DNA of 26,453 nucleotides from a virus (Duplodnaviria; Heunggongvirae; Uroviricota; Caudoviricetes). Below the pieces are notes generated by a model. It had not been told where the DNA came from, did no database searches, and saw only the letters and a program-made list of their open reading frames with translations. The translations under genes were made by a program, and so were the position numbers. The stretch lies in IMG/VR virus record IMGVR_UViG_3300005528_000049. One strand, given 5' to 3'. Below are positions 5,896 to 8,980 of this stretch, in pieces (the stretch's first letter is position 1; the number at the start of each line of letters is the position of its first letter).

Positions 5896-6307
5896 CCCTG
5901 ACTGGTGGAATGGTAGACACAAAAGACTTGATTAATTTAAAAATTTGAGCACTATTACAGTGATGTAGTATGTGAATCTCCCCTAAACGGTGAAGGCTAA
6001 GTATAAGAAATGATCAATCTTTTATATGCTAATACCGTGCCAATTGCTTTTCAATTGAAAAGTTCTAGTGCGTAGAGACTATACAGGGAGTATCTTTTTC
6101 ATATTGACAAACTTCCCACTAAAAGACTAGGGATAGGACGCAGAAGTAGCTAATTTGCTTATATGAACAAGATAAAGATTGAGTCCAGACCATCAAACAT
6201 TAACTCTTTTTAGATAACGAAGGTCTAATCTAATGGTAGTGAAAACTATAGTGGTATGAAAATCTTTTATCCTTTAGGATGTGCAGGTTCAAATCCTGTG
6301 TCAGGGA
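5896..6307 (+). tRNA. trnL: tRNA-Leu(UAA), exons 5896-5929 and 6259-6307, with a group I intron in the anticodon
   Basis: Acceptor ccctgac/gtcaggg; D arm gtg-gaatggtaga-cac; anticodon stem aaaga/tcttt; spliced loop CT-T^AA-AA; long variable arm; T arm gcagg-TTCAAAT-cctgt; no encoded CCA. Confidence 0.92.
5930..6258 (+). ncRNA. Group I intron of trnL(UAA) type, 329 nt, no ORF
   Basis: Inserted after U34 and ends in G (ggtatG). Core elements: cctaaacggtgaaggc, gctaataccgtgccaa, gtagagactatac, aagattgagtcc. Confidence 0.9.
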
Positions 6308-6333
6308 TTATACTTTAATTAGTATAAACAAAA

Positions 6334-6407
6334 GGTCCTATAGCCCAATTGGAAGAGGCGGTAGACTTAGAATCTATTCAGTGAAAGTTCAAATCTTTCT
6401 AGGACTA
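6334..6407 (+). tRNA. tRNA-Leu(UAG) with a short 5-nt variable loop
   Basis: Acceptor ggtccta/taggact; gcc/ggc D stem; gtaga-CTTAGAA-tctat; gaaag-TTCAAAT-ctttc; A73. Confidence 0.85.
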
Positions 6408-6410
6408 TAT

Positions 6411-6466
6411 AAAGATGATTCAGCAATTAATACTTTTTTATGCTAAAAAAAAACAAAATCATCTTG
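6411..6466 (+). ncRNA. Orphan 11th unit of the CAGCAA array, inside the tRNA cluster
   Basis: aaagatgatt-CAGCAA...aatcatcttg, with ends identical to units 2, 4 and 8; the insert is tttttt-atgct-aaaaaa. Confidence 0.8.
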
Positions 6467-6480
6467 TTCTCTATAAATAA

Positions 6481-6554
6481 CCTACATTGGGCAAGCGGTC
6501 TATGCCACCAACCTTTCACGTTGGGTATCACCAGTTCAAATCTGGTATGTAGGA
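6481..6554 (+). tRNA. tRNA-Glu(UUC)
   Basis: Acceptor cctacat/atgtagg; ccaac-CTTTCAC-gttgg; accag-TTCAAAT-ctggt; no encoded CCA. Confidence 0.92.
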
Positions 6555-6611
6555 TTACTCTACTAAGAGTATTATTTTATGTAATTAATAAAGCAAATCA
6601 ATAACAATAAT

Positions 6612-6950
6612 ATGACTGCTAAAAATTGGAGCATTACTGATGAGGAATTGGAAACTCAAATAACTAATGCAAAAGAAGCTACAAAAAAGAGTCTTTTAAA
6701 TACTGCCAGAGTAAAATCTGTTTATTGTACTAAAACAGATGAGCAAAGCATTGTTGTTAATTTATCTTTAATTAATGGTGCCTTAGTTAGTTTTCCAGTT
6801 CATTTGGTAAAAGAACTTAAAGATGCTAATGAAATTAGTTTAAAAGATCAGTGGATTAGTCATTCTGGAGATTCTATTCATTGGGAATCTTTAGACTTTG
6901 ATATTCATACAGAAGATTTAATTAAACGTGTAACTAGTAATAATAATTAA
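6612..6950 (+). CDS. DUF2442-like protein
   Basis: L.NG...FP...V.EL..A...L....IS.SGDSIHWESLDFDI..EDLI pattern. Confidence 0.75.
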   Translation: MTAKNWSITDEELETQITNAKEATKKSLLNTARVKSVYCTKTDEQSIVVNLSLINGALVSFPVHLVKELKDANEISLKDQWISHSGDSIHWESLDFDIHTEDLIKRVTSNNN

Positions 6951-7229: not shown

Positions 7230-8286
7230 ATGAAAACAATTACTTCTACATATTATAATAAAATTCAACCTCTTCTACAAAGTCTTTAGACAATTAGAAG
7301 AAGATGTAATTAATATTAATTTAGAATTAAATTATGATTGGTCTAATCTAGACTTACTTCAAATTCTAAGTAACAAAACAAGTTTAATTGATACTATAAA
7401 AGCTAATTTTAAATTAATAGAAGATTTAGAAGTTGCAGAAGAACTAGAACTAGAACTAGAACAAGATGTGTTAAATATTACATCTAAATTAGATTTGTTT
7501 TTACATACTTGGCAGATTAATAATCTATTCACAGCTAAGTATGATATTAATAATTGTATGTTATATGTTATAGCAGGAGCTGGTGGAACTGAAGCTTGTG
7601 ATTGGGCCAAACAAATACTTCAAATGTATTATAATTGGTTAAAAGATAATAACTATAAGTATAGTTTAATTGATATTCAAGAAGGAGATGTAACAGGTAT
7701 TAAATCAGCCTGTGTACTTATTGAAGGAGATTATTCTTATGGTTATTTAAAGAATGAAAGAGGAAATCACAGACTGCAAAGAGTCTCACCTTATGGTGGA
7801 AAGGATAAAAGACATACCTCTTTTTGTGGTGTTGAAGTTGAACCTATAATTGTTAATTCTCAATTAACAATTAACCCTAAAGATCTAATAATAGATACTT
7901 TTAGAAGTGGTGGAAAAGGAGGACAAAATGTTAATAAGGTTGAAACTGCTATTAGAATAACTCACATACCAACTGGTATTGCAGTTAAATGTCAAGAGAC
8001 TAGATCTCAGCATGAGAATAAGCAAAGAGCCTTAAAACTATTAACTTCTAGACTACAACTAATAAAAGATAATGATGAATTTACAGAGCTGCAAAGTACT
8101 AAAGAAGGTGTATTAGACACTGGATTTGGAAGTAGAATAAGAACATATTCTATTCATCCATATACCCTTGTAAAGGATGATAGAACAGAATGTCAAACGT
8201 CAGATGTATATGGATTTCTGGAAGGTAAATATCTAACAGAATTCATATTAGAAAACTTAAAAATCAAAACTCAAAACTCAAAATAA
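7230..8286 (+). CDS. prfB: Peptide chain release factor 2-like protein, ~351 aa through a +1 frameshift at CTT-TAG (7284-7289)
   Basis: GGQ motif (RSGGKGGQNVNK) and RF2-type tripeptide SPY (HRLQRVSPY...RHTSF). ATG 7230 reads 19 codons to CTT TAG; the +1 frame is open from 7234 to 8286 and has no ATG before the conserved domains. Confidence 0.85.
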
Positions 8287-8291
8287 ATAAA

Positions 8292-8980
<689 letters not shown>

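Follow-up and report, generated by a model that had tools for sequence, protein, structure and literature searches.

The DNA analysed here (the window) is a stretch of 26,453 nt from a member of the Caudoviricetes, IMG/VR record IMGVR_UViG_3300005528_000049, read on the plus strand as given. No record near-identical to it was found in the phage collection. A ten-unit array of the CAGCAA family lies at 1647-2515 on the plus strand, directly 5′ of a plus-strand gene (2526-4052) whose product was assigned by Pfam to DUF2828 and DUF7788. Array units 3 and 9 carry permuted tRNA-like modules, and they gave the only matches in the window to the Rfam model YrlA (RF02553), both of them weak (24.6 and 39.3 bits, respectively). 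A gene of the RNA ligase family (156-1211, plus strand; Pfam PF09414, E 1.3e-11) is found beside the array, and together with a pentapeptide-repeat gene it occupies the region directly 5′ of the array (156-1555).

An eleventh unit, unit 11, is located at 6411-6466 (56 nt, plus strand) within a cluster of tRNA genes. It is preceded by tRNA-Leu(UAG) at 6334-6407 and followed by tRNA-Glu(UUC) at 6481-6554, both on the plus strand and both identified by ARAGORN and by the Rfam tRNA model (59.6 and 57.2 bits, respectively). The gap on the 5′ side is 3 nt (6408-6410) and the gap on the 3′ side is 14 nt (6467-6480), and neither a promoter nor a terminator belonging to unit 11 alone was recognised between the two tRNA genes. 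Unit 11 starts 3896 nt 3′ of the array end at 2515 and lies on the same strand as the DUF2828 gene, 2359 nt 3′ of the end of that gene. It shares its first 16 nt and its last 10 nt exactly with units 2, 4 and 8, and over the first 34 nt, flank counted, it is 88% identical to unit 2. A preliminary description of the locus had reported these coordinates, the 3-nt and 14-nt spacings, the distance of 3.9 kb from the array and the ends shared with the three array units, and all of these proved exact.

The minimum free energy (MFE) fold of unit 11 is a hairpin closed by a 9-bp terminal stem (9/9 pairs formed), with its 5′ strand at 6412-6420 and its 3′ strand at 6457-6465. The CAGCAA motif (6421-6426) directly follows the 5′ strand, and an invariant G (6466) directly follows the 3′ strand; stem, motif and 3′ G are referred to below as the handle. 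The interior of 30 nt contains a U-run (6434-6439), a loop (6440-6444) and an A-run (6445-6453; A-rich to 6458) before the 3′ strand, all on the plus strand, and these form a U-run/A-run hairpin. Most pairs of the stem are A-U, and its stability is only moderate (-5.9 to -7.6 kcal/mol, z -2.2). When 15 units of the same handle class were analysed with RNAalifold, the terminal stem alone was recovered, and the apical U/A hairpin, which is of low complexity, had no covariation support. Some relatives have 5-bp stems with CU-NNN-AA loops. The idea that unit 11 itself is an anticodon-arm mimic was rejected, since its loop has 5 nt, or 7 nt without a U at the U33 position.

To place unit 11 within its family, a covariance model (R1) was built from an alignment of 37 non-redundant units of other phages, with no window sequence included, and the window was searched with all filters off. 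The top match in the 26-kb window was unit 11, at full length, with 64.1 bits and an E value of 3e-12. Nine of the ten array units scored 35-58 bits, and unit 9, which has CAGCTA and a long insert, scored only 8.6 bits. The best match outside the units had an E value of 0.16. A loose handle pattern matched the window 14 times against 1.8 expected. In the 37-unit alignment the terminal stem is paired in 96.7% of cells, with compensatory changes at five of the nine pairs, and none of 500 shuffles did as well. The columns of CAGCAA, the A-rich run and the 3′ G are invariant in the 37 foreign units. Unit 11 is therefore a real and complete unit, and no other copy in the window is as canonical.

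The interior of unit 11 is 79-82% identical to those of tRNA-adjacent units of other phages and 61-71% identical to those of its own array, in pairwise comparisons whose weight is limited by the low complexity of the interior. The preliminary description regarded the unit as self-contained, and this appears to hold: the whole handle is present away from the array, and the interior is nearer to foreign tRNA-embedded units.

The cluster around unit 11 begins with a further gene, tRNA-Leu(UAA), at 5896-6307 (plus strand), which was found by ARAGORN with intron search and was missed at this position by both default ARAGORN and Rfam. It is split after U34 by a 329-nt intron (5930-6258), at the same site as the group I intron of cyanobacterial tRNA-Leu. 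A 320-nt self-closing form of 5939-6258 was present in all four of four metatranscriptomes at 89-315x coverage, against about 4-20x for neighbouring genes, which corresponds to 10-30 times the neighbour-gene abundance. This circle, lacking the first 9 intron bases and with a G at its end, would be the product expected of a group I intron; the Rfam model Intron_gpI gave no match to the intron, even at E 10. Because the closed RNA of the neighbouring tRNA intron is abundant, the cluster is transcribed in nature. Just 3′ of tRNA-Glu, a 6-bp hairpin followed by a T-rich run (6556-6580, plus strand) was read from the sequence and is a possible end of the tRNA/unit transcript. The terminator scan did not call it, because it has too few G-C pairs, and it persists in the MFE fold of the 267-nt precursor. 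That fold contains no cloverleaves and shows only that the unit 11 stem folds on its own. A promoter scan of the window gave 24 sites against 29.3 in shuffles, which is uninformative in such A+T-rich DNA.

Two other genes were observed around the cluster. An unlisted ORF of 47 codons (5748-5891) ends 5 nt before tRNA-Leu(UAA) and encodes a hydrophobic N-terminus with a lipobox-like L-Y-S-C; it may be a small lipoprotein gene that is co-transcribed with the tRNA cluster. A phage release factor gene with PCRF and RF-1 domains (7468-8286) lies about 0.9 kb 3′ of the tRNA/unit cluster.

Of the words sampled from 1600-6600, 48-87% were present in six metatranscriptomes. Four of these were compared as assembled contigs, which carry no information on ends, strand or level and may include DNA carry-over. 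One RNA-run contig (X15) covers 6327-6481, that is, tRNA-Leu(UAG), unit 11 and the first base of tRNA-Glu, and a second one starts at 6398 and extends across tRNA-Glu into the genes beyond. Contigs that bridge both junctions of unit 11 fit co-transcription of the unit with the tRNAs. The X15 contig stops at 6481, beside the predicted RNase P site, and this stop, which comes from a single run, was not counted as evidence. Two metatranscriptomes had no contig cover over 6425-6625, which is uninformative. In one RNA-run contig the A-run of unit 11 is longer by one A (6444-6445) and tRNA-Glu has a G-to-T change at 6504, with the handle unchanged.

The DUF2828 protein is the presumed partner of the units. 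A sequence search of this protein against solved structures, Ro60 included, gave no match. Its AlphaFold2 (AF2) model (pLDDT 84, pTM 0.84) has a ring and a vWA fold, and in a Foldseek search of the PDB the 13 best matches to the model were all Ro60, aligned over the full length, with E values of about 1e-7 and TM scores of about 0.55. These matches include Xenopus and human Ro60, Deinococcus Rsr and the Ro60 of Thermus phage phiLo, at 13-16% sequence identity. Judged from the predicted structure, the protein encoded at 2526-4052 has a Ro60 fold. Homologues of the protein occur in 711 phage records, where they are often annotated as "Ro-like RNA binding protein".

Relatives of the locus comprised 26 loci found by protein similarity and the best cultured relative, Synechococcus phage B23. 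CAGCAA units flank the DUF2828 gene in all close relatives and co-occur with this gene in every locus examined, and the 68 family matches in related loci share its strand without exception. In ten non-redundant loci, 24 of 50 units had a tRNA or tRNA-like gene no more than 30 nt away; with random placement this number averaged 1.6 and never exceeded 7. The gaps from a tRNA 3′ end to a unit were 0, 0, 0, 0, 1, 3, 3, 3, 3, 15 and 17 nt, and those from a unit to a tRNA 5′ end were 4-8 nt in most cases and 14-17 nt in a few. The gaps of 3 and 14 nt in the window are within this range, toward its loose end. Close tRNA spacing alone is no proof of coupled processing, since tRNA islands are tightly packed anyway.

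A scan of IMG/VR with the exact handle of unit 11 gave 31 stretches, and 22 loci were on contigs new to the analysis. Most of the 22 had the same layout: tRNA-Lys or tRNA-Tyr, 0-1 nt, unit, 6 nt, tRNA-Met. The units in these tRNA rows are 3.9-6.2 kb from the DUF2828 gene, comparable to the 3.9 kb in the window. CCA is not encoded in the tRNAs 5′ of the units in the IMG/VR loci, and one base lies between discriminator and stem. Precursors of tRNAs without CCA are the usual substrates of RNase Z. Elsewhere, the handle occurs in arrays of 2-10 units directly before the DUF2828 gene without an adjoining tRNA. The nearest layout relative found was contig IMGVR_UViG_3300014720_000037 (L033, L039), with a DUF2828 gene of about 58% identity. 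It has seven units in a row 5′ of this gene with the AAG...CTTG stem closure of the window, and one more unit 3′ of the gene, 188 nt before tRNA-Leu(UAG).

In locus L004, a promoter-like site (TTGACA-17-TAAGAT) heads a whole transcription unit with the order unit, tRNA-like RNA, unit, tRNA-like RNA, unit, unit, tRNA-Met, tRNA-Thr, with spacers of 0-11 nt. The tRNA-like members of the family are tRNA-shaped handle RNAs of 110-120 nt with acceptor, D and T arms, which score as tRNA in Rfam and alternate with units 3′ of the DUF2828 gene (L004:7565-7677 and 7739-7858; L001:7869-7978; L002:7835-7947 and 8096-8209; L008:7586-7705; and others). In place of the anticodon arm they have a covarying hairpin followed by TAA-CAGCAA, which is a circularly permuted form of the unit handle. 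Locus L002 also has a permuted tmRNA of cyanobacterial type (5528-5779; 116 bits) just before its two gene-proximal units, which points to cyanobacterial hosts for the relatives.

The layout was also found in distant phages, the Ounavirinae of E. coli and Salmonella. In the E. coli phage REP5 (Felixounavirus; L028), a DUF2828 homologue is encoded directly before the tRNA row, and the window protein shares about 36% identity with the homologues of Ounavirinae. The DUF2828 homologue gene with the start of the tRNA row was present in 248 Ounavirinae records. Conserved units are located in the Glu-Met and Met-Asn tRNA spacers of Ounavirinae of E. coli, Citrobacter and Shigella. In REP5, these two spacers contain hairpins with a like-built handle, a stem and then ACAGCAA, and such hairpins were mapped in inter-tRNA spacers at 7723-7814, 7891-7974 and 8290-8560. 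One of the REP5 spacer hairpins has a permuted tRNA module, and parts of them are annotated as tRNA-OTHER or as an overlong tRNA-Thr. The top of the Met-Asn unit of Ounavirinae resembles that of unit 11 in having a U-run and an A-run. In alignments of Felixounavirus, Suspvirus and Mooglevirus the handles are invariant and the interiors drift. Two A-to-G changes in the Ounavirinae handles keep pairing as G-U only, which fits selection on RNA of the unit's strand.

One of these homologues has a reported phenotype. In the PhageMaP preprint, gp130 of phage Bas63, which is Ro60-like and placed before the tRNA row, counters the ppl defence system (PMC11482910). The authors of the preprint guess that some of the tRNA genes are Y RNAs, and they identified no RNA (PMC11482910). 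Our comparison suggests that the candidate RNAs in Ounavirinae are the hairpins in the inter-tRNA spacers and not the tRNAs themselves.

The preliminary description called unit 11 an orphan that was inserted between two tRNA genes. This view has to be corrected, because unit 11 is the local copy of a conserved member of tRNA rows, seen in the ten loci, in IMG/VR and in Ounavirinae. Its other proposals agree with the data as far as sequence comparison goes. Release by tRNA processing is in line with a tight layout that recurs in cyanophage-like contigs and in Ounavirinae. Action in trans is in line with the location of units as far as 6 kb from the gene, 3′ of it and behind promoter-like sites of their own, and the link to tRNA metabolism is borne out by unit genes inside tRNA islands and by family members that are tRNA-shaped.

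We propose that unit 11 is probably, though by no means certainly, a Y-RNA-like partner RNA that is made in a tRNA operon, freed by cuts of the RNase Z and RNase P type and bound by the protein in trans. On the plus strand, tRNA-Leu(UAA) with its intron, tRNA-Leu(UAG), unit 11 and tRNA-Glu(UUC) would be transcribed together as one precursor. The discriminator of the CCA-less tRNA-Leu(UAG), A6407, is 4 nt before the first stem base of unit 11, and an RNase Z type cut after it would place the 5′ end of the unit near 6408. RNase P is predicted to cut tRNA-Glu(UUC) on its 5′ side at 6480/6481, which would set the 3′ end of the unit 11 precursor at 6480. A 3′ tail of 14 nt would be left, which exonucleases may trim toward the invariant G6466. 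The stem, CAGCAA and G6466 of the freed hairpin would then be bound in trans by the Ro60-like protein, as the stem of a Y RNA is bound by Ro60. The apical U-run/A-run hairpin would be the variable part and would pick the target or a partner protein. The role of the particle is probably RNA repair or counter-defence around tRNAs; the RNA ligase gene by the array, the tRNA-like family members and the Bas63 phenotype together point in this direction.

The main rival is that the unit is not released and acts in cis, as a landing pad that recruits the Ro60-like protein to the tRNA precursor for protection, chaperoning or quality control of the neighbouring phage tRNAs. The position of units within a few nucleotides of tRNAs in many phages would suit such a role, as would the RNA contigs that join unit 11 to both tRNAs. 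Judging from the titles of PDB entries 2i91 and 9nep, Ro60 binds misfolded small RNA precursors via a helix and a 3′ single strand. However, the same handle in the arrays of 2-10 units without tRNAs before the gene speaks against cis action as the sole role, and the RNase P and RNase Z cuts on either side would free the unit anyway. We consider this explanation unlikely.

It is also conceivable, but to us distinctly improbable, that unit 11 is a released small RNA that is independent of the DUF2828 protein and serves through its U-run/A-run hairpin as a decoy or sponge for a host exonuclease or RNA chaperone. The recurrence of this top in distant phages, E. coli Ounavirinae included, could be understood in this way, and tRNA-precursor-derived small RNAs are found in bacteria and in phage T4. 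The best-conserved parts, however, are the handle and CAGCAA, which are common to units with quite different tops, and in the loci examined the handle units are always beside the DUF2828 gene.

The identity of the ends to those of units 2, 4 and 8, and the 88% match to unit 2 over the first 34 nt, would be explained as well if unit 11 had arisen by recent duplication of an array unit and were inert, or were no more than a hairpin in a spacer. We give this little credence, as nothing else in the window matches a consensus from foreign phages so well, the interior of unit 11 resembles foreign tRNA-adjacent units more than local ones, and its placement has been kept in many lineages. A miniature mobile element, bounded by terminal inverted repeats and inserted between the tRNA genes, would account for the 9-nt inverted ends and the dispersed copies, but it is very improbable, because all copies are on one strand, the ends covary pairwise between copies with G-U pairs (which are RNA-only) included, the asymmetric CAGCAA motif is conserved and no target-site duplication was found at the flanks (6408-6410 versus 6467-6469). 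An intrinsic terminator or attenuator within the tRNA operon, which a hairpin between genes might suggest, is hardly credible, as the stem has two G-C pairs only and no U tract after it, the terminator scan called none at unit 11, and an RNA-library contig continues beyond the unit, across tRNA-Glu and into the genes that follow.

If the proposal of a Y-RNA-like partner RNA released from the tRNA precursor is right, a large viral branch of Ro60 look-alikes keeps partner-type RNAs inside tRNA operons, at a spacing so close that the tRNA-trimming nucleases would define the RNA ends, and this would be a concrete route for how such RNAs are made. Many phage genomes have odd "spacers" and tRNA genes that were mis-called, and the layout would also explain these. 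Since the same layout is present in the easily grown Ounavirinae of E. coli, where one protein homologue has a counter-defence phenotype, the idea can be tested at the bench.

Ro60, an autoantigen in humans that has relatives in bacteria and viruses, has long been puzzling, together with its Y RNAs, as to its core function. In bacteria and mycobacteriophages, Ro60 (Rsr) occurs with YrlA/YrlB (Chen et al. 2014, PMC4201824; Rfam RF02553), and the Ro60 of Thermus phage phiLo occurs with Yrl1/Yrl2 (PMC12135203). The system described here resembles these in having a vWA ring protein with several small RNAs encoded beside it. As in Y RNAs, the 5′ and 3′ ends of the units pair in a stem beside a short conserved unpaired motif, and the tops are variable and in some cases tRNA-like. 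Unlike Ro60, the window protein belongs to Pfam DUF2828/DUF7788 and not to TROVE, and the similarity is of the fold only. The RNA also differs. A GNCGAA/CGAA motif has been described for bacterial YrlA and the Yrl RNAs of phage phiLo (PMC4201824, PMC12135203), whereas CGAA is absent from unit 11, which has CAGCAA in its place. No tRNA-like module (T arm, acceptor-like stem, D arm) is present between the stem strands of unit 11, and the Rfam Y_RNA and YrlA models gave no match there, even at E values up to 10. Unit 11 further differs from Y and Yrl RNAs in lying inside a tRNA operon and not beside the protein gene. The Bas63 gp130 system (PMC11482910) likewise has its Ro60-like gene before a tRNA row, and Bas63 is itself a Felixounavirus. 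Rfam release 15 has no family for CAGCAA-handle units, and no description of such an RNA family was found in the searchable papers, among which the Bas63 preprint only guesses at Y RNAs among the tRNAs. A full-text literature search for DUF2828 returned unrelated plant and tardigrade papers only.

A likeness was also seen to the Class I RNAs of dictyostelids (RF01414), which are 42-65 nt long and in which the two ends meet in a short stem and the 5′ strand is directly followed by a conserved motif of 11 nt, with invariant positions T3, C6, C9, A10 and A11 (PMC7919456). Unlike the units, they come from eukaryotic genes that have an upstream promoter element of their own; the protein known to bind them is of the RRM type, and they have no reported link to DUF2828. 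The invariant positions would fit a motif ending in CAGCAA. RF01414 gave weak matches to unit 2 (1722-1779; 21.0 bits) and unit 11 (6414-6465; 20.5 bits), with E values of 4-5, which is near chance, and below the gathering score of 41.5. Membership of unit 11 in Class I (20.5 bits, E 5) was rejected on this basis, and the likeness of units 2 and 11 to Class I RNAs is a lead only. A broader and considerably more tentative reading is that the DUF2828 particles might be a separate, widespread branch of the Ro60/Y-RNA system, with RNAs (hairpins, permuted tRNA mimics and tRNA-shaped forms) that sit in tRNA operons and are matured by the tRNA-processing machinery. Such a branch might serve as a tRNA-centred repair or counter-defence device, and the handle in the amoebal Class I RNAs might lead to their missing protein partner.

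Non-tRNA RNAs in tRNA transcripts have precedents. The tRNA cluster of phage T4 contains two stable RNAs, which have no known function, and 3′ETS-leuZ of E. coli is a sponge RNA from a tRNA precursor. In plants, tRNA-snoRNA dicistrons exist. None of these is known to have a CAGCAA handle or a dedicated Ro60-like partner. What they share with the proposal for unit 11 is that a non-tRNA RNA within a tRNA transcript is freed by the nucleases that trim the tRNAs. Events of this kind, in which a tRNA precursor yields a small RNA, are known.
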